Positions 3,388-35,537 of a stretch of DNA of 64,000 nt are shown in pieces. The stretch spans positions 70,511 through 134,510 of the forward strand of contig JBBTUJ010000002.1 in assembly GCA_038063815.1 (NCBI GenBank). The letters are read 5' to 3'. The translations under genes were made by a program, and so were the position numbers. The notes beneath the pieces were generated by a model. It saw nothing but the letters and a program-made list of their open reading frames with translations, was not told the DNA's origin and did no database searches. The first letter of the stretch is position 1; the number at the start of each line of letters is the position of its first letter. This DNA is from Patescibacteria group bacterium. GTDB lineage: Bacteria; Patescibacteriota; Minisyncoccia; Phycocordibacterales; EsbW-18.

Positions 3388-3870
3388 GTGGAAAAGAGTA
3401 TACAGGTGAGAAACGCGAAAATCAAAGGCAGAATTGCTCTTCCGTGCTCGTTTGATATGCTTACCCATATGAGTCCTTCGAGAAAAATATTACTTGTTGA
3501 TGATGACCCAAGCATCACCAATCCGCTTTCTGAGCGCCTTACGGGTGCAGGATATACGGTATTTGTTGCTCACACAGGAACAGAAGGACTGACAGCAGCA
3601 CTCAAAGAACATCCGGAACTTATACTGCTTGATATCATGATGCCCGAGATGAACGGCTGGGAAATGCTTGAGGAATTGCAGAAAGATCCGTGGGGTAAGA
3701 CCGCACCTGTTATCATCCTCTCGAATATGGATGACATGGACAACGTATCGCAGGCGGTCGCGCACCAAGCGCACGAATACATCATTAAAGGAAGTTGGAC
3801 GATGGACGACATCGTTCGAAAGGTAGAAGAAAAGTTTGCATATCAAGAGGCCGCTCCTGCGGGCGACTAG
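3388..3870 (+). CDS. response regulator receiver-domain protein (CheY-like, single domain)
   Basis: KILLVDDDPS...LILLDIMMPEMNGWEML receiver motifs. The true start is probably an internal Met at 3457 or 3469, because the ORF as drawn abuts the tRNA. Confidence 0.75.
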   Translation: MEKSIQVRNAKIKGRIALPCSFDMLTHMSPSRKILLVDDDPSITNPLSERLTGAGYTVFVAHTGTEGLTAALKEHPELILLDIMMPEMNGWEMLEELQKDPWGKTAPVIILSNMDDMDNVSQAVAHQAHEYIIKGSWTMDDIVRKVEEKFAYQEAAPAGD

Positions 3871-3937
3871 CGGAGTTGGTTAGAGCGTTCGCTTCACCAC
3901 ACTAGAGCGGTCACAGGTTCGAATCCTGTGTCGCCCA
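3861..3937 (+). tRNA. aberrant tRNA-like element (possible pseudo-tRNA or att remnant)
   Basis: Perfect 7-bp acceptor stem GGGCGAC/GTCGCCC, canonical T-arm ACAGG-TTCGAAT-CCTGT and discriminator A. The D-stem is weak, and the anticodon region forms only a CGCTT/GAGCG stem with a 10-nt loop. It overlaps the stop codon of the response regulator gene. Confidence 0.35.
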
Positions 3938-5141: not shown

Positions 5142-5750
5142 TTAGCGTCTATTTATTAATGCGTTACGGATTGTTTCGCGATCCGAGTACTCAAGTTCTG
5201 TTCCCGTTGAGAGACCGCGTCCAAGAAGTGTTAGGGTGAACTTTTGTTTATCCAAAAGAGGGGAGAGGAGTGTACGCACATGATCTGCGGTCATTTCACC
5301 TTCCGGATGTGCTCCTGTTGCAAGGATGATCTCGGTGAGCCCTCCGTTCGTATCCCGAACGCGCGAAAGCAAGTCCTCAACGCGAAGTGTTTTGGGTGTT
5401 CCATCGAGTAAAGAAACGGTACCGCCAAGAACGAAATAGCGCCCGTTGTAGACGCCGCTTTTTTCGATCGCTTCAAGATCGGCGTCTTTTTCAACGATCA
5501 TGAGTAGGTGTGCATCTCGATTCGGGCTTCCGCAGATATCGCACGCTTCAGCGTACCCGTCCGCTTCGAAGAATCGGTGACAGTGATTGCACTCAACCGT
5601 CTTATCTTTGAGTTCTTTCACCAGGCGAGCGATTTCCTCCAGGACCCCTTTTTCTTGTGTGAGTAAAAAATAGACGAATCGTTTCGCCTGTCGTGGCCCG
5701 ATACCGGGGAACTTTTGGAAATACGACGCGAGTTTTTCAATGCCTTTCAT
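5142..5750 (-). CDS. recR: recombination protein RecR
   Basis: 202 aa. HhH N-terminus (FPGIGPRQAKR), C4 zinc finger CNHC...CDIC and a Toprim region. Confidence 0.9.
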   Translation of the reverse strand: MKGIEKLASYFQKFPGIGPRQAKRFVYFLLTQEKGVLEEIARLVKELKDKTVECNHCHRFFEADGYAEACDICGSPNRDAHLLMIVEKDADLEAIEKSGVYNGRYFVLGGTVSLLDGTPKTLRVEDLLSRVRDTNGGLTEIILATGAHPEGEMTADHVRTLLSPLLDKQKFTLTLLGRGLSTGTELEYSDRETIRNALINRR

Positions 5751-5759
5751 ACTAGGAGT

Positions 5760-5842
5760 TGGCGGTTAGAAGTTTGGGGTGAGTGATTAGGGTTAGTTTA
5801 GTTGTGGGTTGTTGGTCGTAGGTTGTTGGTCGTCGGTTATTT
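5760..5842 (+). repeat. G/T-rich low-complexity repeat, copy B (reads as a CA-rich G-less 5' leader of recR on the minus strand)
   Basis: GAGTGATTAGGGTTAGTTTAGTTGTGGGTTGTTGGTCGTAGGTTGTTGGTCGTCGGTTA is homologous to 3960-4020 and 39320-39395. Confidence 0.6.
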
Positions 5843-7259
5843 AGAAAGGTGTCTCGTCGGATTTAGTTTCAGGTGCAGGTGGTTTTTCGAGTCGTTCGAA
5901 CTCTTCAACACCGTGTCGCTCGATGGAACGGAACGTCGCGCGCTTGTTATCAAAGAAAAGCTCAAGTGTTCCTGTCGGACCGTTTCGGTGTTTTGCGATG
6001 ATGATTTCGACAATATTCGATTTCTCGGACGCTTCTTTGTAGCGGTCATCGCTGTGAATGAACATGACGACGTCGGCATCTTGCTCGATGGAGCCCGAGT
6101 CACGGAGGTCGGAGAGTTGCGGACGCCCGCGGCGTTGCTCGATCGCACGTGAGAGCTGTGAGAGGGCAATAACAGGCACATCGAGTTCCCGGGCGAGTTG
6201 TTTGAGCGCGCGTGAGATCTCTGTCACTTGCTGCACCATCGAGTCGCTCTTCATTTTTGTCGAAGGAGCCATGAGTTGGAGGTAATCAACGATCAAAAGA
6301 TCAAGACCATGTTCGCTCTTCAGACGTCGTGCAACAGAGCGCATCTTCAAGATATTGTTCGCAGGTTGATCATCAATAAAGATATTTGCCTGGGAGAGAC
6401 GAGAAAGTGCTTCGCTGATGCGGTTGAATTCGTCATCGGTGCGGAGTTTTCCTGTACGCAGGTTCCAGGCATCAACTTGGGCTTCCGAGGCAAGAAGGCG
6501 GTCAACAAGCTGCTGGGAACTCATTTCAAGAGAGAAAATCCCCACCTTTTTTCCGTGGCGAAGCGCGGTGTTCCGAGCGATATCAAGCGCAAGAGATGTT
6601 TTACCCATCGAAGGCCGCGCGGCGATGATGATGAGGTCTGATTTTTGGAATCCAGCAAGACGACTATCGAGCTCAGCAAATCCTGTGGGAACACCACGGA
6701 GTTCGTCTGTTGATTTATGCAAACGGTCAAAACGTTCGAATGCTTCATCGAGAACGTGTGAGAGCGCGATGAACTTCTGATGTGTTGATGCATTCGTCAC
6801 CTCAAACACTTTCTTTTGTGCTTGGTCGAGAAGTTCGTCGAGGTCTTCTTCTTCGCTAAATCCGAGCTCATTCAAGTGCACACCAACTTCGATCAAAAGG
6901 CGCATCGTGTGTTTTCTGCGAACAATCTCCGCATAGTGCTTCACGTTCATCGAAGAGGGGACTGTCTCGACGAGAGATGCGAGGTAACTCATGCCGCCGA
7001 TACTTTCGAGTTGCTTTAACTCCTTGAGCCGAGACGAAACAGACACGAGGTCAATCGGTTCGTTCTTCTTGAAAAGATCGAACATCGCACTGAAGATCAT
7101 GCTGTGCTTCTGCGCATAGAATGATTCGATGGAAACAGTGTCAATCACTTCATGCATCGCTTCGGGACGAAGGAGAATGGAACCAAGAAGCGCTCGCTCC
7201 GCTTCGAGGTCTTGTGGTGGTGTGCGGAGGTGAGAAGTGGTCAAAGATTTTTCTGCCAT
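5841..7259 (-). CDS. dnaB: replicative DNA helicase DnaB
   Basis: 472 aa. N-terminal LEAERALLGSILL, a Walker A-like loop (ARPSMGKTSLAL) and a C-terminal RecA-like domain. Confidence 0.9.
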   Translation of the reverse strand: MAEKSLTTSHLRTPPQDLEAERALLGSILLRPEAMHEVIDTVSIESFYAQKHSMIFSAMFDLFKKNEPIDLVSVSSRLKELKQLESIGGMSYLASLVETVPSSMNVKHYAEIVRRKHTMRLLIEVGVHLNELGFSEEEDLDELLDQAQKKVFEVTNASTHQKFIALSHVLDEAFERFDRLHKSTDELRGVPTGFAELDSRLAGFQKSDLIIIAARPSMGKTSLALDIARNTALRHGKKVGIFSLEMSSQQLVDRLLASEAQVDAWNLRTGKLRTDDEFNRISEALSRLSQANIFIDDQPANNILKMRSVARRLKSEHGLDLLIVDYLQLMAPSTKMKSDSMVQQVTEISRALKQLARELDVPVIALSQLSRAIEQRRGRPQLSDLRDSGSIEQDADVVMFIHSDDRYKEASEKSNIVEIIIAKHRNGPTGTLELFFDNKRATFRSIERHGVEEFERLEKPPAPETKSDETPF

Positions 7260-7476
7260 GGTGCTCGTATGTTAGCACGCACGCACAAGGGTGGGACTTC
7301 CCAGAAGGGGAGTAGTGTGTGGTTTTAGTGGGGACAAGGGTCGCTCGCGTACAGTTTTTTGAAATGCACGGATAAAATCTGGCTCGATTTTTCCTCGTGC
7401 TCGCGCCAGCCGCGCTCGCAAGTCATTTCAAAAAAGTACGCTCGCTTTTGTGTTAAATACGAAAGAGGATCAGAAC

Positions 7477-7505
7477 TTGACGTACAAGCAGTAGTGTTAT
7501 ATTGT
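7477..7505 (+). promoter_or_regulatory. sigma70-like promoter for the small GC-rich gene
   Basis: TTGACG, a 15-17 bp spacer and TATATTGT, followed by SD AGGAGG 5 nt before the ATG at 7531. Confidence 0.4.
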
Positions 7506-7530
7506 CGATACAGACAACCCAGGAGGAACC

Positions 7531-7773
7531 ATGAAATCAGTGCGAGTCCAACCCGAACAAGGTGGTAACGTGTTGCTGGTGGACGTTGTCTGCAACTGCG
7601 GTAGCAACGGTCTCACGAATGTCGAGACGGGGGAGGCCAGCTACAAGCACAACGTTCGCCTGGGTGAGCCGGCGAAGGCCGTGGACACGGTGCTGCGGTG
7701 TAGGTGTGGGAAGTCCTACCGACTCCACCCGCAGAAATCTCACCTCCACGTCTTCGACGAATCGGCATCCTGA
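7531..7773 (+). CDS. small Cys-rich hypothetical protein (putative zinc ribbon; atypically high GC)
   Basis: 80 aa with CNCG...CRCG. Strong SD, own promoter and own terminator. GC is markedly higher than in the surrounding genes. Confidence 0.55.
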   Translation: MKSVRVQPEQGGNVLLVDVVCNCGSNGLTNVETGEASYKHNVRLGEPAKAVDTVLRCRCGKSYRLHPQKSHLHVFDESAS

Positions 7774-7805
7774 CGATTTCCGTCGATTAGGCGCGGTTGT
7801 TTCTA

Positions 7806-7855
7806 GCCGCCGAGGGCCGTGCGCTCCTCGGCGGCCTTCTCGTTTATCTTTTTTG
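7806..7855 (+). terminator. rho-independent terminator
   Basis: GCCGCCGAGG-gccgtgcgct-CCTCGGCGGC followed by a T-run. Overlaps the convergent 3' end of cysS. Confidence 0.6.
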
Positions 7856-9211
7856 AGACATTTTTTGGCCTTCTTCTGTGTCTTTTACGGCAAAACCAGC
7901 ATCTTCAATTTTTATGCGGATTTCATCTGCAAGGGCCCAGTCCTTTTTATTTCGTGCGTTCTCACGGTCTTTTAGAAGTTTTTGAACATCATCAGGAACC
8001 GTAACGTTTTCTTGTCGCGCCATATCGAGACCGAGAACGCTGTCGAAGAGGAGTGCTGTTTCTTTTTTATCCGCCGGAGAAACATTTTCGTCTCGAATCA
8101 TATCCCACAAGACGGCAAGTGCTTGTGGTGTGCCTAAGTCATCAAAAATCGCTTCATCAAATTGTTTCTTGTATTCAGGTGAGACACTTCCGCCAGTAGG
8201 AAGTCCAGAAACATTCTCACGCAATCGGAGAAGCGCGGTCTCGGCTGCCTGAAGCGCTTCCCATGTGAAATTGAGAGAACTTCTGTAGTGTGCTCCGAGA
8301 GCAAGGTACCGAAGAGCAAGGGGCTCAAGTCCTTTGTCTTGTATATCGCGAAGCGTAATTTGGTTACCCTTCGATTTCGCAATCTTTTCATCAGCAATAT
8401 TCAAGAATGCGTTGTGAAGCCAAAACCGGACGAACTGTTTTCCTGTCGCACCTTCTGATTGTGCGATTTCATTATTATGGTGAACAGGAATGTGATCGAT
8501 GCCCCCCGTGTGAATGTCAAATGTCTCACCAAGGTATTTCATGCTCATTGCGGAGCACTCGATGTGCCACCCCGGGAATCCTTTTCCCCAAGGACTCTCC
8601 CATCCAAGTTCATTGTTAAATTTCCAAAGAGCAAAATCACGCGGACTTTCTTTTTCTGTGTTTTCGGCAACACGAGCAACACTTTCGTCTACTTCTGTAA
8701 TACCGCCCAATGCGCCGTATTTGGGATACCGAGAGGTTGCGAAGTATACTCCGTCTTTTGTTACGTACGTCAGATCCTTTTCTTCGAGTCGCTTGATAAC
8801 GTCAATTTGCTCTGCAATATGCTCGCTTGCGCGGGGGAGCACGTGTGGACGTAGGATGTTGAGAGCCGCGAGGTTTTCGATAAATGCGTCAGTGTATTTG
8901 GTCGCAAGGTCATACATACCCTCACGTGTTACCGGCAATCCTTCGCGCTTCAAACCCTTCATCATTTTATCTTCGCCGGTATCTGCATCTGAGGTGAGAT
9001 GGCCAACGTCGGTGATATTCATGACCTGTGTTACATCAAAACCTGCATGTTCTAGGGCGCGTCGTAATGTATCAGCAAAGATATACGAGCGGAGGTTTCC
9101 GATGTGGACATAGTCATAGACCGTGGGGCCACAGTTATATACCCCGACTTTCTTAGGGGTAAGGGGGACGAACTCCTCTTTTTTCTTTGTGAGCGTGTTG
9201 TATAAAAACAT
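7844..9211 (-). CDS. cysS: cysteine--tRNA ligase
   Basis: 455 aa. CGPTVYDYVHIGN (HIGH), the KIAKSKGN KMSKS-type motif and Cys/His zinc ligands. Confidence 0.9.
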   Translation of the reverse strand: MFLYNTLTKKKEEFVPLTPKKVGVYNCGPTVYDYVHIGNLRSYIFADTLRRALEHAGFDVTQVMNITDVGHLTSDADTGEDKMMKGLKREGLPVTREGMYDLATKYTDAFIENLAALNILRPHVLPRASEHIAEQIDVIKRLEEKDLTYVTKDGVYFATSRYPKYGALGGITEVDESVARVAENTEKESPRDFALWKFNNELGWESPWGKGFPGWHIECSAMSMKYLGETFDIHTGGIDHIPVHHNNEIAQSEGATGKQFVRFWLHNAFLNIADEKIAKSKGNQITLRDIQDKGLEPLALRYLALGAHYRSSLNFTWEALQAAETALLRLRENVSGLPTGGSVSPEYKKQFDEAIFDDLGTPQALAVLWDMIRDENVSPADKKETALLFDSVLGLDMARQENVTVPDDVQKLLKDRENARNKKDWALADEIRIKIEDAGFAVKDTEEGQKMSQKR

Positions 9212-27052: not shown

Positions 27053-28141
27053 CTACACCCCTTCTTCTTTGAGTTTTTCGATGAGGTCTTTTGCTTGTCT
27101 TGAAAGTCGTTTTGGCATGTCAACCTCAACGATGACACGGAGCGCTCCTCTTCTGCCGTCGCGACCGGGGACACCCTTTCCGCGAATTGATATCTCGTGT
27201 CCGTGCGAGATACCGGGTTCGATGGGAACGCTCACTGGTCCGTCGAGTGATTCGATCGTGTACGTTCCTCCAAGAAGCGCGTCAGAGAGTTTGATGTGAA
27301 GAAGTGTCACGAGGTCATTCCCATCTTTTTGTATCGAAGAGTGCGCTTTGACGTGGACCTTTACGTAGAGGTCTCCCGCCGTACCGTTTTGTATTGCCTC
27401 TCCAGCTCCTGTGAGACGAATCATCTCACCGTCTTCCATTCCCGGAGGAATGATAATGCGTGCCTCTCCTTCTTTGCGCGAAATCCCCGCACCCCCACAC
27501 TCACTGCATGGTTTTGAGGGGAGTGTTCCTTTTCCGTGACACGCCCCACACGTGGTTACTGTCGCGAATGTACCCAACATCGATGTTCGTGTCTCACGGA
27601 TCTTTCCTTTTCCGTTACACGTCTTGCATGTCTCTTGTGTCGAGCCGGGCTCACCTCCACTTCCTTTGCATTTCTCACAGACAGCCGCTTTTCGTACGAG
27701 AACATTTCGCGTTGTGCCAAAAATCGCTTCTTTGAAATCAATCTCAACGTCAATCGAGATATCACGGCCGCGTCGCGAACGCGCGCGACCTCCGCCACCA
27801 AACATCTCGCCGAAGATGTCCCCCAAGTCGAATTCAAATGCTCCGCCGTTCTGTGCGCCGGAGAATTGTGAGAAGTCGAAGTTAAACCCTTCAAATCCCG
27901 AGAATCCTTGTGGTCCTCCACCTCCTCCCCCTGCGAATGTTTTGCCGTATGTATCGTATTGCGCGCGTTTTGCATCATCCGAAAGGACGCCGTATGCCTC
28001 GTTTATCTCCTTGAATTTCGCCTCATCCCCTCCTTTTTTGTCAGGGTGATACTTATGCGCCAGTGTCCGGAACGCCTTCTTGATGTCGTCTTTTGTTGCG
28101 CCCTTGTTAACGCCGAGTGTTGAGTAGTAATCCTTCGCCAT
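27053..28141 (-). CDS. dnaJ: chaperone DnaJ
   Basis: 362 aa. J-domain with HPD, a G/F-rich region and four CxxCxGxG zinc-finger repeats. Confidence 0.9.
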   Translation of the reverse strand: MAKDYYSTLGVNKGATKDDIKKAFRTLAHKYHPDKKGGDEAKFKEINEAYGVLSDDAKRAQYDTYGKTFAGGGGGGPQGFSGFEGFNFDFSQFSGAQNGGAFEFDLGDIFGEMFGGGGRARSRRGRDISIDVEIDFKEAIFGTTRNVLVRKAAVCEKCKGSGGEPGSTQETCKTCNGKGKIRETRTSMLGTFATVTTCGACHGKGTLPSKPCSECGGAGISRKEGEARIIIPPGMEDGEMIRLTGAGEAIQNGTAGDLYVKVHVKAHSSIQKDGNDLVTLLHIKLSDALLGGTYTIESLDGPVSVPIEPGISHGHEISIRGKGVPGRDGRRGALRVIVEVDMPKRLSRQAKDLIEKLKEEGV

Positions 28142-28207
28142 ATTTGACTTTTGTCACTTATTATACTATTGTCCCGACAGACGCACAACCACTCAAGGAG
28201 AAAAGCC

Positions 28208-28813
28208 GTGAGCAATCTCGAAAGAGTACATGTCGCCATGTCGAGCCAAATGAGGGGTGATGACAATGAAATCACTTTCCGCGGCTTGAGCGACGAGGAA
28301 GTCGAGCGATTGCAAGGGATGTTGCAAGGACAGTGGTGGGTTTCCGGCAATCACGCCAACGGGCGTCTCCGGTTCAGCGGTGGATGGTTGCCTGCCCCCG
28401 ATCCGGTCACGGATGAGGCGATGGAACCTTTCTGGCGTCGATACGAGCCCCAACATCCGCCAACGCCCCACCAGCAGGTCATGCTGACCTCCAAGACCAG
28501 CTGGAAGCACTCCTCGCCCCACTTCTCCATCCAGAATCTCTGCGGGTACAACTACAGCCGCGAGAACTACGCCCGCAACGCGTGCCTACTGGAGACCTAC
28601 GGTTTCGTGTGTCTCCGGTCCCGCCGCGAGGAGGATGGGAAGTACTGGGAAATCTGGTTTCTTTCCGGTCTCTGGGCGGCGCGGGGTGAACTCCAGAAGA
28701 ACCTGCGGGAGCGCGACGACGTGGAGGGAGCGATCTCTTTCCTCTGCCGGACCGTCCAGTTCGGTACGCTCGATGTGGCAGTGCAACGTGCTGCCATGCC
28801 GTCTCCCGACTAG
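28208..28813 (+). CDS. GC-rich hypothetical protein (about 201 aa from GTG 28208; ATG alternative at 28229)
   Basis: SD AAGGAG lies 6 nt upstream of GTG. Longest frame in a high-GC block. Trp-rich, no TM, no recognisable family. Followed by a GC-clamp terminator. Confidence 0.5.
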   Translation: MSNLERVHVAMSSQMRGDDNEITFRGLSDEEVERLQGMLQGQWWVSGNHANGRLRFSGGWLPAPDPVTDEAMEPFWRRYEPQHPPTPHQQVMLTSKTSWKHSSPHFSIQNLCGYNYSRENYARNACLLETYGFVCLRSRREEDGKYWEIWFLSGLWAARGELQKNLRERDDVEGAISFLCRTVQFGTLDVAVQRAAMPSPD

Positions 28814-28831
28814 GGTTTTCTTCAAGGCCGT

Positions 28832-28866
28832 GGGGCCCGCGTTCGCGCGGGCTCCGTTTTTTATAT
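28832..28866 (+). terminator. rho-independent terminator
   Basis: GCCCGCG-ttcg-CGCGGGC hairpin, then TCCGTTTTTT. Confidence 0.6.
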
Positions 28867-28920
28867 CAATTTTTTCAGCAGGTTTTCAACTTTTAGCCAC
28901 ATTTTATTACCTATGAAGTA

Positions 28921-28941
28921 TTCTGGGCTTCTGCAGAAACT
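28921..28941. repeat. 21-bp direct repeat TTCTGGGCTTCTGCAGAAACT (copy 1), containing the palindrome TTCTGCAGAA
   Basis: Identical 21-mer recurs at 29246-29266. Palindromic cores also occur at 29203-29212 (TTCTGCAGAA) and, as a half-site, at 31114-31126. Confidence 0.7.
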
Positions 28942-28952
28942 CAGAATAGTTT

Positions 28953-29222
28953 ATGAAGAATACAAAAGAACTCGAAAAAATATTTAAGGCGTGTGCCAAT
29001 TATCATCGCATCGATATTTTGCTCTTACTTGAACGGCGGCCAGATATATCCGTATTTGATATTGCTGACGAAGTGAAAGGAGATTTCAGAACAGTATCAG
29101 AACATCTACGCAAACTGACACTTGGTGGTCTGATTGTTAAACGTAGAAAAGGGCTTGCGGTCGGGCATTCGATCACTGAGCGCGGTGAAAGGGTTCTTGG
29201 TTTCTGCAGAACCTTAGAGTAG
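28953..29222 (+). CDS. winged-helix (ArsR/HTH-like) transcriptional regulator
   Basis: 89 aa. YHRIDILLLLERRPDISVFDIADEV...VSEHLRKLTLGGLIVKRRKG is an HTH-plus-wing pattern. Flanked by palindromic repeats. Confidence 0.6.
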   Translation: MKNTKELEKIFKACANYHRIDILLLLERRPDISVFDIADEVKGDFRTVSEHLRKLTLGGLIVKRRKGLAVGHSITERGERVLGFCRTLE

Positions 29223-29245
29223 TTAATTTGATGAGGGTTGAGGTT

Positions 29246-29266
29246 TCTGGGCTTCTGCAGAAACTT
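29246..29266. repeat. 21-bp direct repeat TTCTGGGCTTCTGCAGAAACT (copy 2)
   Basis: Exact copy of 28921-28941, downstream of the HTH gene. Confidence 0.7.
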
Positions 29267-29360
29267 GGAATAGAGCGGAGGGTTGTTGAAATAGAAAAAG
29301 TTGTTGGAAGGAGGTTTGTTGGAGTAGAAAATTAGTAGTTGAGGTTGGAGGTCGGGTGAG

Positions 29361-29389
29361 TTGACATGTGTGTTTTACAAAGGTATAAT
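29361..29389 (+). promoter_or_regulatory. consensus sigma70 promoter (TTGACA-17-TATAAT)
   Basis: TTGACA at 29361-29366, exact 17-bp spacer, TATAAT at 29384-29389. Preceded by a GTTGTTGGA-type repeat tract and followed by SD GAGGAGG. Confidence 0.55.
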
Positions 29390-29457
29390 GCAAGAGGATA
29401 CAGAAGCGTCAGAAAACGGGATTCCACCCGCTCAAAACCATCCGAGGAGGAAAGCTT

Positions 29458-30066
29458 ATGGATGTCCAGAAAGCCGAGCAGATGCTCTGGCAGAGGGCTG
29501 ACGAGCTTTCTGCCGAACGAGATGCGCTCTCCAAGAAGAGCGACGAGCTCTTCCAGATCTGCGGACGAGTCCGCAAGGGAGAGCTCAAGGGTGCCGACCT
29601 TGTGAAGTTGGAGGGGCGTTACTGGGAAATCCAGCGACGTCTCGAGGCGATTACTGCCGAAGAGGCAGAGATTGTCCTCGATCTCGAGATGATTTCGCGA
29701 GGTGTGATTCCGGAGAAGTTCGCGGAGTCAGCCCAGTCCGCCCTCTCGAAGCGCCGTCAGGCGATTGCCTCCGAGGAGGCGCGAATGTTGCCTCGCGAGG
29801 ACGAGGACCAGTTCTGGGAGGCGTATGTTCCCGGATACCAAGGGAAGCGTCCCAAGAGCGCTCGTCATCAAGCGGCATCCAATGGGCGCTTTCTCACAAC
29901 GGGTCGTCACGCGACCCATGTGACGGGGCAACTTTTGCCAGAGATCGCCCCCGATGCTTTCTTCGAGGCGACGGCTGACACTCACGGTGGTAAGGTCCGA
30001 GGCGGTTCAAAACCCGTCAATGGGACCTACATCTCCAAGGGAGGGAAAGCAATTCGGAAGTTCTAA
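29458..30066 (+). CDS. GC-rich hypothetical protein with N-terminal coiled-coil (202 aa)
   Basis: Perfect promoter and an SD with AAGCTT directly before the ATG. Tandem GC hairpins and a T8 terminator follow. No family recognised. Confidence 0.55.
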   Translation: MDVQKAEQMLWQRADELSAERDALSKKSDELFQICGRVRKGELKGADLVKLEGRYWEIQRRLEAITAEEAEIVLDLEMISRGVIPEKFAESAQSALSKRRQAIASEEARMLPREDEDQFWEAYVPGYQGKRPKSARHQAASNGRFLTTGRHATHVTGQLLPEIAPDAFFEATADTHGGKVRGGSKPVNGTYISKGGKAIRKF

Positions 30067-30070
30067 ACAC

Positions 30071-30121
30071 GCCGCGCAACGCGCGGGCCCGCCCAGACCA
30101 TGGGGCGGGTTCGTTTTTTTT
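30071..30121 (+). terminator. rho-independent terminator (tandem GC hairpins plus T-run)
   Basis: GCCGCGC-aac-GCGCGGG and CCCGCCC-agaccat-GGGGCGGG, followed by TTCGTTTTTTTT. Confidence 0.65.
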
Positions 30122-30141: not shown

Positions 30142-31002
30142 TTACGTTTTAACTCTCATCACGAAAACCTGGGCGTTCTCAAGCAACAGTCTCACTTTGT
30201 GATCATCAATGTTTAATTTTTTTGGAGATACCAAGTTATTTCTTTCTTCCATAAAACTGTGACGCTCGATGCTAAATCCTAGATCACTAAAAAAACGAAC
30301 GGCATGCTCTTCGTTGTCAAAAAGATTGTTATCTATGTTTATTCCTGTTATCTCGTTTATCTTATCTCGTAAACCGTGTGCCACAACCTCACTGTCCTGC
30401 ACCATTCTTTTTTTTGAGATATCCGGAGTGATCCAGACACCGCCGAACTTTTCGAGAATCTTATGAATGTTTTTTGCAACCACAGCCTTTTGTTCGAAAG
30501 AGAGATATCTCAATAAGCCCTCATGTATAACAGCAATAGGCTTTTTTTCATCAAAATGCTTGCACGCCAAGAGGAGTTCTTCGTAGACTAAAGCATCTGC
30601 TGGTTCAAAGTATATATTTGCAGGGAGTTCTTTTTTGAATTTCGATAGTATTTGTTTCTTCTCTTCGATTAATTTTGAAAAGTCCGTTTCCACATATGTT
30701 ACCCGGGAATCCTCTGAAAGTTCCAAACCCCGCGGAGAAAGTCCAGCGGCAATCTCGAGAATCTGCGTTATGCCACTTTCCTTCAGAAGACGGTTGGCTA
30801 GTTTGTACCTTGCCTCAAATTGGGGGCTCAGCCGAGTATCCTTTACCACTTCTGGAATCGTTTCGCCTGCCTCAATACGAATTTTTTCCATCTCGTCAAA
30901 TATTTCCTTAGAGAAAGGAATATCAGAGAATGTTCGGCAGTGTGCCACAAGCCACGCTGTCGGTATTACTTTTTCGTTCCCCACTTTCGAATGCTTTTTC
31001 AT
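30142..31002 (-). CDS. class I SAM-dependent methyltransferase, LCM/TcmP-like O-methyltransferase family
   Basis: 286 aa. QILEIAAGLSPRGLEL and YVETDF resemble the LCM family GAGLDTR and E-D-P motifs. Lies 36 bp downstream of res on the same strand. Confidence 0.5.
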   Translation of the reverse strand: MKKHSKVGNEKVIPTAWLVAHCRTFSDIPFSKEIFDEMEKIRIEAGETIPEVVKDTRLSPQFEARYKLANRLLKESGITQILEIAAGLSPRGLELSEDSRVTYVETDFSKLIEEKKQILSKFKKELPANIYFEPADALVYEELLLACKHFDEKKPIAVIHEGLLRYLSFEQKAVVAKNIHKILEKFGGVWITPDISKKRMVQDSEVVAHGLRDKINEITGINIDNNLFDNEEHAVRFFSDLGFSIERHSFMEERNNLVSPKKLNIDDHKVRLLLENAQVFVMRVKT

Positions 31003-31038
31003 TTTTTAAAAGGGCCTGACCCTATCTTTTCTAATATT

Positions 31039-33570
31039 CTATTTTTCAAGAAGGTCTTCGAGAGAGCTTCTGAAATGCTTTTGAAATAACCTACCATCGA
31101 GAAGATATTCGCAAAATTCAGAATAGTTTGAGGGACTTAAGAAATGAAAGAAGTAGTTCTGATTAACTTTTGCTTTCTTTAATTCCTCATTTAGGGTTTT
31201 AAAATGTTCCTTTGCCCAACGGTATTTGGCCTTATTTTCATCTGACTCATCACCGTCCATTTTGATTTCCACAACAACAATATTGTTGGCAAGCTTTAGA
31301 AAAAAATCCGGATTAAAGTTAGCCTGCGTCTGATGCTCACCTTTGCGCCACGAATACTCAATGCTATAAAAATTTTGATCCCTTGACTTTATCCAAGCGT
31401 CAATCTTTTCACTAACTTTTGAACTAACAATAGCTTGAACAAACTTTCTTTCGGGCTCATGTTTAGTAAAAACAATATTTATAGGTGTTTTAAAACAATA
31501 GTAGTTTATTTCCTTACTAGCCCTTTTAGGTAAACTTTCATCGTTAATAATGTCCGAAAGAAGATCATATTGTTCTTTTGAACACTCACTTTCATACTCA
31601 TCAGAATAAAAAACAGTTGCGTCATGTCTAAGGGCGCCAATAGCAATACTTTCCTGTTCTAAATTTCTCGTACTTATTTTTTTTGGCTTTTCGACTTTTC
31701 TTTTAAAAATAATTGTAGATGCTCGAGTTCTAAAAAGTGTTTGAAAGGTTCCAAAAATCTTTTTTGTATTAATTTCAGTTAAAACACCACTTTTAATGCC
31801 AACTACCTGCATAGATTTTTTCACATGCTCTCGGATCTCATTTTCGGGTGGTAAATCTTCTTTCGTATAAATTCCCTTCGGGAAACGTATTTTTGCTTCA
31901 AAGTCTCGCGTTTTGAAAGTATCGATAATTTTTGTAACAACTTCATCTATTGTATAAGTTTCTTTTTGGACAGTTGTTGTTTTACGTATTATTCCACCTT
32001 TTAAATCTTCGTACTCAGTTTCTTTTTCATCATGTTCAACCTGGCTTACCAATTTTGTGTATCCTTTCGAATAATCAAATTCCTCAGTATCTTTTTTTGC
32101 TTCCACCTCTTTTTCTTCTTTTGTAAAATCTATGTTATAAATGTCAAAATGATAATTTTCGCGACCGCCAAATATCAACGGAGCACTTACTAGACGAACC
32201 TCTACTTCTAAAATTTCATCAATAAGACCACGGATATTTCGACTCCATGCGTCATGATTAAAAACACGAACCTTTGGCTGTGGTGATTTATACGCTTCAG
32301 GCACACGCAATCCGCGACCAAGCACTTGAGCTATGAGAAGTTTTGAATTGAACGCCCGGTCTTCCCATGGCACAATTTGAAAAACATTTTTTACATCCCA
32401 GCCCTCGGTTAGCATAGAAACTGAAATAATCCATTCAACTGGGTTATTTTTTTCGTCTACACTTTTTAACTGCAAAATGTTTTTCTTGTGATCTTTGTGG
32501 GAAGTAACAATCAAAACTTTTTTCTCAACGGCGATGCGTGAGATTTTTTCGCGTTTTTGCAAAAAATCAACCAAATCTTCTCGAAGCGTTTTTGCTCTTG
32601 AAATATCTTTTGTAACAAGCATTGTAAGTGGTTTAATGAGTCCATACTTTTTTACAAATTCGTCATGGTTATCATAAATCTTTTGAAATTTCTCATTTGT
32701 ATCAATGCTTTCGTCTTTTGCCACATAATCAACAGATTTTACTACATGTTCATCAACCGCCTGTCGGATTGAGTAACGATAAATGACGTCATTAAAATAC
32801 TCATCGTCAATGTACGCTGTTCCGGTAAAGCCGAGAATATATTTGAATCCGTAATCAGAATTAAGTAAAAACGCTTTCCATTTTTTTATATCCGTATCCA
32901 GTGAAGCGTTGTAGGCATGATGGACTTCATCGTTCAAAACCAAGACACGCGCCCCGCTGCCTTTCAAGCTATCTTGTATTGATGATCCAGTACGTTCGTA
33001 AACGGCATGGATATTTTCCACCGCAATGTCACCATTTTTTATAGTGCTATTTGCGTCAATAATGCGAGGATTTTTATACACCGCATCGTTGGGTAGGGTG
33101 GTTTTAATTCGATCATCGCCAGAAAGATTTTGAAACTTCTCTTTTAATCCTGCCTCAATAGTGAGCGATGGGCAAAGTACAAGAACCCTATCAACCAATC
33201 CAAGTCCTAAAGCAATTTGCGCAATTCCGTACATTACATAACTTTTTCCTGTTCCTGTTGCCAAATCAATAACACCAGATAATTTGTGAGGTAGCTGTAA
33301 GTTCTTTTCGTATTCGCGCGTATCTTTGTATCGATCTCGTAATTCAACATTCGTTCGCCAATTTTCGCTGATCAAATCTTCAATTGAATCGTATTCGCCA
33401 GAAGCAATGTAGGTTATTGCCGTGCGGATCGCGTCTTTTTGGTACTCTCTATCTGGACAAAGCACATCAATGAAATCTATCCATTGCTTGAGTTTCAACT
33501 TCGTGGGATCAAATTTTTCTTTAACCTCTAGAACCAAATCTTGTGTTTTATAAATCTTGATGTCTGTCAT
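31039..33570 (-). CDS. res: Type III restriction enzyme, Res subunit (SF2 helicase-nuclease)
   Basis: 843 aa. Walker A LATGTGKSYVM and a DEAH-type box VLNDEVHHA. Directly downstream of mod with an ATGA start/stop overlap. Confidence 0.85.
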   Translation of the reverse strand: MTDIKIYKTQDLVLEVKEKFDPTKLKLKQWIDFIDVLCPDREYQKDAIRTAITYIASGEYDSIEDLISENWRTNVELRDRYKDTREYEKNLQLPHKLSGVIDLATGTGKSYVMYGIAQIALGLGLVDRVLVLCPSLTIEAGLKEKFQNLSGDDRIKTTLPNDAVYKNPRIIDANSTIKNGDIAVENIHAVYERTGSSIQDSLKGSGARVLVLNDEVHHAYNASLDTDIKKWKAFLLNSDYGFKYILGFTGTAYIDDEYFNDVIYRYSIRQAVDEHVVKSVDYVAKDESIDTNEKFQKIYDNHDEFVKKYGLIKPLTMLVTKDISRAKTLREDLVDFLQKREKISRIAVEKKVLIVTSHKDHKKNILQLKSVDEKNNPVEWIISVSMLTEGWDVKNVFQIVPWEDRAFNSKLLIAQVLGRGLRVPEAYKSPQPKVRVFNHDAWSRNIRGLIDEILEVEVRLVSAPLIFGGRENYHFDIYNIDFTKEEKEVEAKKDTEEFDYSKGYTKLVSQVEHDEKETEYEDLKGGIIRKTTTVQKETYTIDEVVTKIIDTFKTRDFEAKIRFPKGIYTKEDLPPENEIREHVKKSMQVVGIKSGVLTEINTKKIFGTFQTLFRTRASTIIFKRKVEKPKKISTRNLEQESIAIGALRHDATVFYSDEYESECSKEQYDLLSDIINDESLPKRASKEINYYCFKTPINIVFTKHEPERKFVQAIVSSKVSEKIDAWIKSRDQNFYSIEYSWRKGEHQTQANFNPDFFLKLANNIVVVEIKMDGDESDENKAKYRWAKEHFKTLNEELKKAKVNQNYFFHFLSPSNYSEFCEYLLDGRLFQKHFRSSLEDLLEK

Positions 33571-33572
33571 AA

Positions 33573-35537
33573 CTACTTCAAATTAAATATTTCTCGGAAT
33601 TCGTTACCGTAAACATCAACATAAATTGTCATCATATACTTTCCACATTTTTTGCTCTCAAAATCTAAAGTGATTTCTTTGCAGTTCTCAAGTTCTTTTT
33701 GAATCTGTTTCTCATTGCCTTCCTCATTATCTTTTTTACCTATCAAATCTTGTGCAAAGAAGTATTCACTCATCAAAAATTGATCCCTGTTATATTTCAA
33801 ATCAACAAGTACCATCGCCAAGCTCTCAAAGTTTTTTAACTTCTCTCCGGTCTCGTCTTGAGCGTAAGCAGATTCAAATTTCTTAATTTTGAGCACAATC
33901 TTGTTTTTTGTCAGTTTTACTTCCGATTTTACTTCCGGTTGACGCACAAAGTGAAAGCCAATAGCATCATCAAGATCATTAACCTGACCCTTACTTTGAG
34001 GTTGACGTAGTTTTTTAAACTGCACCTTATGTAACTCTTTAATAATTTGATAAGGCACTTTCAAAAAGTAATAGCGCGTGCCGTCAATTTCATGATAGTC
34101 ACTAATAAAATTAACATTGTTTGCCGGGGCAATAATATACATACGCCCATTGATTTTTGCGCCAAGATTTTTGTGTAATTCGTTTAGATATTTTTCATCA
34201 ACGCTTGCTTCTTGTACTTCCCAATACGGAAAAAGTTTTACATAAAATTCTCGACGTTTTCCGTCTAGCGATACGCCACCGATGGACTTTACTTTAGTTT
34301 CCGCTACTTCAAAAAGTCGCTTCACAAACTCTATATACTCATCTTTTTTAAGAGAAAAAACTTTTTCTAAATCATAAAGACCAGAAGTAACAATTCCAAA
34401 AGATTTAGCAACTTTTGCATAATCTTTTTTTGGATTGTCCAAGCTCTTACTCTCTTGGATTTCCAAAAGTCGTTTCTGTATTGTGTAAATTGCTAATTTG
34501 CCGATATCACACCCAATCCATCGACGGCCAAGCTTTTCGGCAACAGCAAGGGTTGTTCCACTTCCAGCAAAAACATCCATAACGATATCATCTGGACTGG
34601 AAGCTGTTAAAATAACCCGACGCAATAACTCCTCTGGTTTCTGGGTCGGATATCCAATGTATTCTCGGCTTGCTGATTTCGTCGTAGAGCTTTGACCAAT
34701 TTCCCAAACATCATCAGCTTTTTTCTCTGTAAAATCCTCGTAAATTAACTTCCCTCCCTTATCTCGTGCAGATATCAATTTCCCCAATTCCTTAGACCAA
34801 ATCCGTTTATCACGCCGAACAGTCTTATTGAGCGGGATCATCACCTTGTTTGCCGTGTAAATATCAGATTTTGAGTACCAAAAAATATTGTTGTGGTTTA
34901 CTGCGAAACCATCTACGTTTCCCTGAAAGTTGTCAGAGTAGTGCCAGATAATTTCATTTACAAAGTTATTTTCACCAAACACCTCATCCATAACAACTTT
35001 TAGATATTGTGCCTTCTTCCAATCAAGGTGAACAAAAATACTTCCATCATCCGCTAAAATTTCGCGCATCAATACCAAACGGCGGCGCAAAAATTCAACA
35101 AATTCTGCACCTTTGGCTTTGTCAGAGTACGCTTTTTGTCCCTTGTTGCCGGAAAAGTCCTGTGCTGTGGCAAAGGGTGGGTCAATATAAATTAGTTTTA
35201 CTTTACCCTTAACCTTTCCTTTGATGAGGGGGTCTTCATCTTTATAAAAAGTTTTGAGGATTTGAAGATTATCACCGAACACTAAAAGATTATGCCAATT
35301 TTTTGCAGCAAGAGGGTATTTTGTGCCGTTAAAAATTTTCTCAGTTTGAAGCGGGACAGCTTTTGCTTCCTCGTTGTCTGCCAAAATATCCTCTTTGCGT
35401 GCTTTTCCAGAATAAACAAGCTCGTACTCTTTTTGTTTGGTCGGAAAAATTGCGTACTTATATTCAGCGGGAATTTCTTTACCCGTCTTTAAGCACTCAA
35501 TTAGAAATTCTATGTCGTATTTGTTTAAATCGCTCAT
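33573..35537 (-). CDS. mod: Type III R-M N6-adenine DNA methyltransferase, Mod subunit
   Basis: 654 aa. LIYIDPPFATAQDF (motif IV DPPF) and VMDVFAGSGTTLAVA (motif I). Confidence 0.85.
   Translation of the reverse strand: MSDLNKYDIEFLIECLKTGKEIPAEYKYAIFPTKQKEYELVYSGKARKEDILADNEEAKAVPLQTEKIFNGTKYPLAAKNWHNLLVFGDNLQILKTFYKDEDPLIKGKVKGKVKLIYIDPPFATAQDFSGNKGQKAYSDKAKGAEFVEFLRRRLVLMREILADDGSIFVHLDWKKAQYLKVVMDEVFGENNFVNEIIWHYSDNFQGNVDGFAVNHNNIFWYSKSDIYTANKVMIPLNKTVRRDKRIWSKELGKLISARDKGGKLIYEDFTEKKADDVWEIGQSSTTKSASREYIGYPTQKPEELLRRVILTASSPDDIVMDVFAGSGTTLAVAEKLGRRWIGCDIGKLAIYTIQKRLLEIQESKSLDNPKKDYAKVAKSFGIVTSGLYDLEKVFSLKKDEYIEFVKRLFEVAETKVKSIGGVSLDGKRREFYVKLFPYWEVQEASVDEKYLNELHKNLGAKINGRMYIIAPANNVNFISDYHEIDGTRYYFLKVPYQIIKELHKVQFKKLRQPQSKGQVNDLDDAIGFHFVRQPEVKSEVKLTKNKIVLKIKKFESAYAQDETGEKLKNFESLAMVLVDLKYNRDQFLMSEYFFAQDLIGKKDNEEGNEKQIQKELENCKEITLDFESKKCGKYMMTIYVDVYGNEFREIFNLK

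Follow-up and report, generated by a model that had tools for sequence, protein, structure and literature searches.

A small gene of an undescribed, predicted zinc-ribbon-like family, probably imported between cysS and dnaB of a Patescibacteria genome, and a separate conserved hairpin element beside it

The DNA described here is a 64,000-nucleotide (nt) stretch of contig JBBTUJ010000002.1 from a Patescibacteria group bacterium; the whole stretch is called the window, and positions are counted from its first letter. At issue is the 584-bp gap between dnaB, the gene for the replicative helicase (5841..7259, minus strand; assigned by Pfam DnaB and DnaB_C and by relatives), and cysS, the gene for cysteinyl-tRNA synthetase (7844..9211, minus strand; assigned by Pfam tRNA-synt_1e and CysS_C and by synteny in relatives). 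Inside the gap, and antisense to both neighbours, lies an open reading frame (ORF), ORF80 (7531..7773, plus strand), whose product of 80 amino acids (aa) has two CxCG motifs (CNCG, residues 21-24, and CRCG, residues 57-60) together with conserved histidines, and belongs to an uncharacterised family. A promoter-like site and a Shine-Dalgarno (SD) sequence precede ORF80, an intrinsic terminator follows it, and a hairpin element occupies the part of the gap nearer to dnaB. The near flanks, as identified by Pfam, consist of dnaB, cysS, recR, and a protease. The same DNA was found at 99.9-100% identity on two short contigs from Hainich groundwater metagenomes. Among species-representative genomes, the closest DnaB proteins share 57-65% identity, and almost all of them are labelled Patescibacteria, Paceibacteria, or Parcubacteria.

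ORF80 is a genuine protein-coding gene. When 1.84 billion cluster representatives were searched exhaustively with HMMER (E <= 1e-3), 94 homologues emerged, 35 of them at E <= 1e-10; they are mostly 71-83 aa long, are 33-61% identical, and align end to end. A word-indexed protein search returned ORF80 itself as the sole match. Because the 94 homologues align over their full length in this frame, coding is assigned to the plus strand, and the view of the sequence-only reading that this is a stand-alone plus-strand gene is thus borne out. The obvious alternative is that the frame is open by chance and that the DNA here is GC-rich but non-coding, for example a structured RNA. GC-rich DNA does carry overlapping frames here (one of 137 aa on the plus strand and two, of 70 and 51 aa, on the minus), and a weak S-adenosylhomocysteine (SAH) riboswitch match lies at 7782-7835 on the minus strand. 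The homologues, however, keep the frame and share invariant cysteine and histidine columns, the structural model is confident, and the G+C fractions at the three codon positions (GC1/GC2/GC3, 0.62/0.42/0.73) follow a coding-like pattern. Coding on the opposite strand was no better, as the homologues fit the plus frame. The homologues, the invariant columns, the AlphaFold2 model, and the alignment of the two halves of the protein to each other together rule out a chance ORF or better coding on the other strand, and we attach next to no probability to a chance ORF. The riboswitch itself was rejected because its 26.9 bits compare with a gathering score of 37 and the match is simply the terminator hairpin.

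In an alignment of 37 family members, C21, C23, C57, C59, and H71 are invariant, and M1, R5, G24, H40, Q68, and H73 are conserved in at least 90% of sequences. The resulting signature is MKSVRIEP..(strand)-CxCG...FKH...(strand)-CxCGKxYxxxPQxxHxHV, in a mostly beta-stranded protein of ~75 aa. AlphaFold2 predicted ORF80 with a mean local confidence (pLDDT) of 54 from the single sequence, rising to 94.5 (predicted template-modelling score, pTM, 0.82) when the alignment was supplied. The model has six strands and no long helix, and strands 14-20 and 53-56 end just before the CxC motifs. Around CxCG, the N-terminal half can be aligned with the C-terminal half (hhalign E 4e-5, probability 70%). We infer from the sequences that the four invariant cysteines, which make up two knuckles, one after each of two beta-strands, coordinate a single structural zinc in the manner of a zinc ribbon, and that H40, Q68, H71, and H73 may provide another conserved surface or metal site. 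The paired CNCG and CRCG motifs that had been read as zinc-ribbon-like are indeed present in the 80-aa product, and the invariance of the CxCG pairs across the family is consistent with such a site.

ORF80 resembles Cys4 zinc ribbons in having four invariant cysteines in two short knuckles, each after a predicted strand, and in being small, mostly beta-stranded, and internally repeated in its halves. It departs from them in that its knuckles are CxC(G) rather than CxxC, in the additional H40, Q68, and H71-x-H73, and in lacking both a significant Pfam zinc-ribbon model (best E 0.004-0.07, in one or two members each) and a Foldseek match in the PDB. Neither Pfam nor NCBIfam gave a usable match to ORF80; across the family members, Pfam produced nothing beyond scattered sub-threshold zinc-finger noise, and a profile search of PDB sequences reached a best E-value of 0.019. 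The classical C2H2 finger is C-x2-4-C-x12-H-x3-5-H on a beta-beta-alpha fold, and this assignment was rejected: the spacing in ORF80 is C-x-C-x11-H-x-H, residues 62-76 are predicted as strands and not as helix, and the PDB C2H2 matches have E-values of 0.02-0.46. Few homologues carry a source name, and those that do are each a 'hypothetical protein' of Patescibacteria group bacterium or of Candidatus Lloydbacteria. The family is undescribed in the databases searched.

One candidate for a known relative is ribosomal protein bL31, and ORF80 might be a divergent bL31 paralogue, possibly one with SD-dependent autoregulation in a genome that otherwise lacks SD sequences. The NCBIfam L31 model NF000612 matches 15 of the 37 members (best E 1.7e-6), Pfam Ribosomal_L31 matches four members, and a bL31 chain in the PDB is reached at E 0.099. 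Length, the MK.. start, and the strand-CxCG-strand element that the models weakly pick up are likewise shared, and the family keeps its SD in SD-poor hosts. ORF80 itself, however, has no L31 match, and when ten members were scanned individually, the two that matched did so over ~20 residues at 13-16 bits, compared with a cut-off of 70; the matched knuckle was the first in one of them and the second in the other. The second half of the protein differs, with no counterpart of the CxxCHPFYTG half of bL31, nor is the protein strongly basic. In its distribution, the family is sporadic rather than universal, and its gene contexts are non-ribosomal. As the matches are short and far below the cut-off, the resemblance is at the level of a motif and not of membership, and descent from bL31 is judged very unlikely.

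Several longer proteins contain the family domain, nearly always at the N-terminus. P0002 is a tandem double, P0042 has a C-terminal RNA polymerase alpha C-terminal domain (alpha-CTD; helix-hairpin-helix, Pfam E 2.6e-7), P0079 ends in a domain judged by eye to be alpha-CTD-like, and P0056 carries a NADAR domain (E 6.7e-33), a fusion seen once; most C-terminal parts of the longer proteins have no assigned identity. Because the domain thus precedes a variety of C-terminal domains, it probably works as a small module for binding. Its fusions to alpha-CTD and NADAR hint at a nucleic-acid or transcription-linked partner, but this is a doubtful proposition at present.

The family profile found one copy in the window and none in ~1.7 Mb of other fetched loci, many of them from Patescibacteria; thus, the family is accessory and sporadic. 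Small, sporadic accessory genes may be toxins, antitoxins, or components of anti-phage defence, and both the NADAR fusion and the presence of a type III restriction-modification island elsewhere in the window could be taken to favour such a role. Yet the eight family loci share no conserved neighbour or partner gene, most copies are monocistronic, PADLOC found nothing in the family, and PHROGs contributed only two unannotated families, in four of the 37 members. A defence or toxin-antitoxin function is therefore very unlikely, on a par with bL31 ancestry.

ORF80 is surrounded by expression signals of its own. The SD sequence AGGAGG (7521..7526, plus strand), recognised as strong in the sequence-only reading, lies 4 nt before the ATG in an unstructured leader; the fold around the ribosome-binding site reaches only -3.4 kcal/mol (z +1.3). 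A sigma-70-type promoter-like site occupies 7477..7505 on the plus strand, with TTGACG at 7477-7482, a spacing of 17 nt, and TATTGT at 7500-7505, and an alternative extended -10 element, TGtTATATT, lies at 7495-7503. The proposed promoter is thus present, but the match alone is not above chance: a window scan with this pattern found one site where 0.7 were expected. The terminator (7806..7857, plus strand) consists of a GC-rich hairpin (7806-7835) and, after it, a U-rich tract that reaches into the final codons of cysS, which is encoded on the opposite strand. As had been read from the letters, its stem (7806-7815 / 7826-7835) has 10 perfect pairs (11 by terminator scan, nine of them G-C), and these are followed by CTTCTCGTTTATCTTTTTT. 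There is no U-tract after the hairpin on the minus strand, and any read-through from cysS would therefore be antisense to ORF80. By consensus and folding, then, ORF80 is a predicted self-contained expression unit with its own promoter, SD, and terminator, from which transcription would run from ~7510 to ~7850 and efficient SD-led translation would be expected.

An SD is exceptional in this genome. No SD-like sequence was present 3-18 nt before the start in 57 of 59 long ORFs of the window (examples on the minus strand, from the SD scan of long ORFs, are the starts at 7259, 9211, 38604, 38948, and 41017). The SD-less genes include those for S9, L13, S4, S11, S13, RpoA, DnaK, and GrpE, and strong SDs occur only on GC-rich orphan genes. 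The same signals accompany the family elsewhere. A GGAGG-type SD was found in all eight ORF80-family loci, even where none of seven neighbours has one (L211 and L217; fetched loci are given as L numbers), and a hairpin plus T-run lies downstream in all eight. In five of the eight, the gene has its own TTGAC-N16-19-TAnnnT promoter, whereas the other three follow another gene at a distance of 11-46 nt. L207, L211, L212, and L217, four of the seven homologue loci, have TTGACA, a 16-19 nt spacing, and TAnnnT at 56-96 nt before the ATG.

This organisation recalls the phage moron, known from lambdoid phage genomics as an independent promoter-gene-terminator unit of deviant composition inserted between adjacent genes. 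ORF80 is similar in having its own promoter and intrinsic terminator, in lying between genes that are adjacent in relatives, and in differing in composition from its flanks. It differs from a moron in being chromosomal and located between housekeeping genes, with no phage or prophage there and no relatives in phage collections, and in being antisense to its flanks.

The GC content of ORF80 is 0.588 and its GC3 is 0.728, compared with an overall GC of 0.469 for the window. For the 59 long window ORFs, GC3 averages 0.473 +/- 0.075 with a maximum of 0.729, placing ORF80 at z = +3.4; the flanking values are 0.533 for dnaB and 0.434 for cysS. The claim that the gene is far more GC-rich than its neighbours therefore stands, and so does the idea that its codon usage differs from that of the core genes. 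The codon log-likelihood ratio of ORF80, using a table from two GC-rich genes at 28-30 kb against a core table, is +14.7 nats, a value reached by none of 171 core 80-codon chunks, none of which exceeded +3.0.

The two genes in question are orphans, at ~28209-28813 (GC 0.59, GC3 0.73; TTGACT-17-TATTGT, SD AAGGAG) and ~29458-30066 (GC 0.59, GC3 0.67; TTGACA-17-TATAAT, SD GAGGAGG), each followed by a GC hairpin and T-run; the segments holding the two units are 28140-28860 and 29360-30110. The second gene encodes the NCBI 'hypothetical protein AAB460_00945 [Patescibacteria group bacterium]', whose distant relatives are ~210 aa long. Cross-trained codon tables group ORF80 with both genes, and TTGAC-17-TATTGT is common to the promoters of ORF80 and the 28.2 kb gene. 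The sequence-only reading had proposed that ORF80 may be a dispersed member of the same acquired set. The shared composition and the shared promoter, SD, and terminator layout are real, but joint arrival or a single donor is not established by them: the 28-30 kb genes have no homology to ORF80 and are absent near ORF80 homologues, and a common origin is unproven.

The position of ORF80 is also informative. About two dozen relatives have cysS immediately upstream of dnaB, with both genes on one strand. Among 22 measured spacers, ~15 are 39-200 bp long, compared with 584 bp here, and about a third hold unrelated inserts of 270-1500 bp. Since the spacers are short in most relatives and contain unrelated inserts in others, the junction is conserved yet repeatedly invaded. 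Unrelated inserts were seen in L005, L006, L027, L047, and L064, marking a recurrent insertion spot, and the L012 spacer contains a gene for an IS200-like Y1 (HUH) transposase (5175-5867, minus strand). Around the ORF80 cassette, a search for target-site duplications or boundary repeats gave only short repeats at chance level. A 14-nt pair with 93% complementarity, GGTGGGACTTCCCA at 7290-7303 upstream of dnaB and TGGGAAGTCCTACC at 7707-7720 inside ORF80, is probably due to chance.

Three independent signals thus distinguish ORF80 from its host: its composition and codon usage, its SD, and its location in a junction that most relatives keep short and empty. Under the favoured explanation, horizontal transfer from a donor that was richer in GC and used SD sequences would have delivered ORF80 as a module ready for expression. 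The alternative is that ORF80 is native and long resident, with its high GC3 and its SD reflecting selection for very high expression. A strong promoter-like site, a strong SD, an open ribosome-binding site, and a terminator would all suit such a gene; in addition, the SD is a family trait in every host, and the GC of the gene is host-like in most other hosts. However, host genes expected to be highly expressed (those for ribosomal proteins, rpoA, dnaK, and grpE) have GC3 values of 0.35-0.62 and no SD, which makes expression-linked codon bias unlikely. Nor would long residence be expected of a gene in a spacer that is short and empty in most relatives, or explain why two other orphan genes have the same odd composition. 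Native origin is accordingly considered unlikely, although it deserves more weight than the other alternatives raised here.

Overall, the best explanation is that ORF80 is a real gene of a zinc-ribbon-like family, forming a self-contained unit that was imported, and that the neighbouring hairpin is a separate entity; we put the probability of this combination at roughly 0.78. Several observations weigh against it. No donor of ORF80 was found, and IMG/VR, GenBank phages, and plasmid collections contain no relative. The nearest relative has a DnaB identity of only 65%, and no closer genome with an empty junction was seen. The GC of the family gene is host-like in most other hosts, and the family is thus not intrinsically GC-rich, but for the same reason (homologues match their hosts elsewhere), the high GC of ORF80 is taken to reflect its donor and not its family. 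A Foldseek search with the ORF80 model against the PDB and BFVD gave nothing below E 0.2, and neither a zinc ribbon nor any other fold was significantly matched. Finally, by residue count, ORF80 is only mildly basic, which disfavours nucleic-acid binding, and the domain fusions are few.

The remaining feature of the gap is a three-way-junction hairpin at 7348..7440, supported by its fold and by a covariance model, whose probable RNA strand is the minus strand. Its outer stem pairs 7348-7366 with 7424-7440 and encloses hairpin A (7370-7394) and hairpin B (7396-7422). The inverted repeat previously noted upstream of ORF80 is part of this stem; the repeat is real, but it lies at 7355-7366 (TTTTTTGAAATG) and 7424-7435 (CATTTCAAAAAA) rather than at 7345-7356 and 7425-7436, the left arm having been placed 10 nt away. 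Beyond a 2-nt bulge, the stem continues to CGTAC / GTACG and so spans 7348-7440. The centre of ~55 nt reads CACGGATA..TTCCTCGT GCTCGCGCCAGCCGCGCTCGC AAG. Hairpin A has the loop C-UGCU-G, and hairpin B is GCUCGCGCCAGYCGCGCUCGC; on the probable RNA strand, the latter contains a tandem GA/GA internal loop. A 25-nt core pattern matched the window once and never in 100 shuffles, and the covariance model likewise found one copy (81 bits, E 6e-20).

The element is widespread, with copies in more than 50 Patescibacteria-like loci. A metagenome scan for a 21-nt core yielded at least ~54 true copies on contigs of 36-57% GC; among the matches listed, the remainder were chance occurrences in high-GC coding DNA. 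Every copy folds into a long outer helix that ends in a three-way junction, from which two hairpins extend. In a gapless alignment of 44 sequences, 88.8% of cells were paired, compared with 68.6% in shuffles and 33-51% with slid partners; 26 of 36 pairs had changes on both sides, and none of 500 shuffles reached the observed covariation. Covarying positions include six of the ten pairs of hairpin A and pairs 48-74 and 50-72 of hairpin B. The covariance model also recovered more divergent copies in independent loci: L003 has two, L039 and L048 have one each, and L009 has a further one besides that in its cysS-dnaB spacer. These keep the architecture and show compensatory changes in hairpin B. 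In the L009 cysS-dnaB spacer, the same centre lies in the opposite orientation, and the 33-bp stem enclosing it differs completely from that in the window. Even copies that share a contig have unrelated stems (L009; L145 and L148), which is why the centre is regarded as the conserved part.

Copies lie almost always beside the 3' end of a gene (by our tally, ~12 between convergent genes, ~15 between tandem genes, and two between divergent genes), in both orientations and next to many unrelated genes. Among transition-type mismatches in the stems, 44 are of the A:C type and 11 of the G:T type on the aligned strand (40 and 11 after duplicates were collapsed; binomial p 6e-5). This excess means that G·U wobble is tolerated on the complementary strand, arguing for an RNA read from there; in the window, the RNA strand would then probably be minus, which is the strand of cysS and dnaB. 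The hairpin was rejected as an intrinsic terminator, as the flanks of ~49 copies had no consistent T-run on either strand. Rfam 15 contains no match to it: apart from the terminator, nothing was found at E <= 10 over 7200-7900, and nothing at E <= 1 in nine other loci with the element. In the literature searched, the core sequence was not found, nor was anything relevant on structured RNAs or repeats of Patescibacteria or the candidate phyla radiation (CPR).

Some copies carry an extra GC-rich hairpin, e.g., CCTGCCTGCC..GGCAGGCAGG, between hairpins A and B, after B, or within A (L107 9870-10039, L154 6793-6931, L160 1845-1990, L109 5671-5837, L116, and L181), and the scaffold thus tolerates modular insertions. 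Copies in L097, L118, L160, and L197 lie close to the end of a contig or directly at it. This would be expected of a repeat that interrupts metagenome assembly, and copy numbers per genome are therefore likely to be underestimated.

In being multi-copy, intergenic, ~95-190 nt long, mostly adjacent to gene 3' ends in either orientation, and disruptive to assembly, the element resembles repetitive extragenic palindromic (REP) sequences and their REPIN doublets, enterobacterial repetitive intergenic consensus (ERIC) sequences, and miniature inverted-repeat transposable elements (MITEs). It is unlike them in that its centre is conserved and its stems are locus-specific and covarying, whereas in those elements it is the arms or terminal repeats that are conserved and the centre that varies, and in its wobble asymmetry, which suggests selection at the level of RNA. 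A REP/RAYT system, in which a Y1 transposase serves the repeats, seems unlikely from the fetched loci: the L012 transposase is not linked to hairpin copies, its locus having none, and it is the one Y1_Tnp gene in 1.8 Mb of fragments.

Whether ORF80 and the hairpin are a single mobile unit, the hairpin being its recombination or integration site, also has to be considered. They are only 36-90 nt apart, the L009 spacer holds a hairpin copy together with an unrelated 84-aa antisense ORF, and the L012 transposase gene occupies the same spacer. However, the seven other family loci contain no hairpin (best covariance-model score 17 bits), the ~50 hairpin loci contain no family member, hairpins stand beside many unrelated genes, and the 1.8 Mb of fetched loci have no other Y1 transposase. 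A joint mobile unit is therefore quite unlikely, and the idea that such hairpins mark integration spots of ready-to-express orphan genes like ORF80 is unsupported. Nor does the inverted repeat, which the sequence-only reading described as flanking the upstream region, delimit or insulate the cassette: it is the stem of an independent conserved hairpin that has many unrelated genes as neighbours and is absent beside other ORF80 homologues. Returning to the hairpin as a separate entity, we tentatively propose, at somewhat less than even odds, that it is an undescribed, widespread structured RNA of Patescibacteria, usually located at a gene 3' end and having a conserved function. It could be an mRNA element recognised by a protein and acting at the 3' end, in processing, or in stability, which is our best guess, or a small RNA derived from the 3' untranslated region. 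Of the two features in the gap, the hairpin is the more novel.

Three further features of the window were recorded. Between the two GC-rich genes at 28-30 kb is a low-GC gene for an ArsR/HTH_24 regulator (28953-29222, within 28918-29274). The direct repeat TTCTGGGCTTCTGCAGAAAC stands on either side of this gene and contains the palindrome TTCTGCAGAA, of which a third copy occurs near 29203; the palindromes are probably operators of the regulator. Next, 30142-35537 is a low-GC island (0.33-0.41) encoding an LCM-like methyltransferase, a helicase like the Res subunit of type III restriction enzymes, and an N6/N4 DNA methylase, and is probably another acquired block. Lastly, a tRNA-like gene at 3861-3937 is reported by ARAGORN as 'tRNA-???' with anticodon 'tc', no normal anticodon being readable, and scores only 37.7 bits with the Rfam tRNA model.

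In sum, ORF80 adds a member to an undescribed family with a predicted zinc-ribbon-like site, and its gene has the make-up of a moron-like unit. It has no Pfam or NCBIfam entry and no PDB sequence match, and it comes from tiny genomes that are full of unannotated small genes; as a well-folded, conserved, and predicted metal-binding protein family, it offers a defined target for structural and biochemical work. An SD-led gene in a host whose own genes lack SDs would be a natural case in which to study how an imported gene is expressed, and whether the rare SD-led genes are translated in a special way. To our knowledge, very few conserved non-coding elements are known in Patescibacteria, and the hairpin family, which spans more than 50 loci, shows strong compensatory changes, and lacks an Rfam model, could add one to them.

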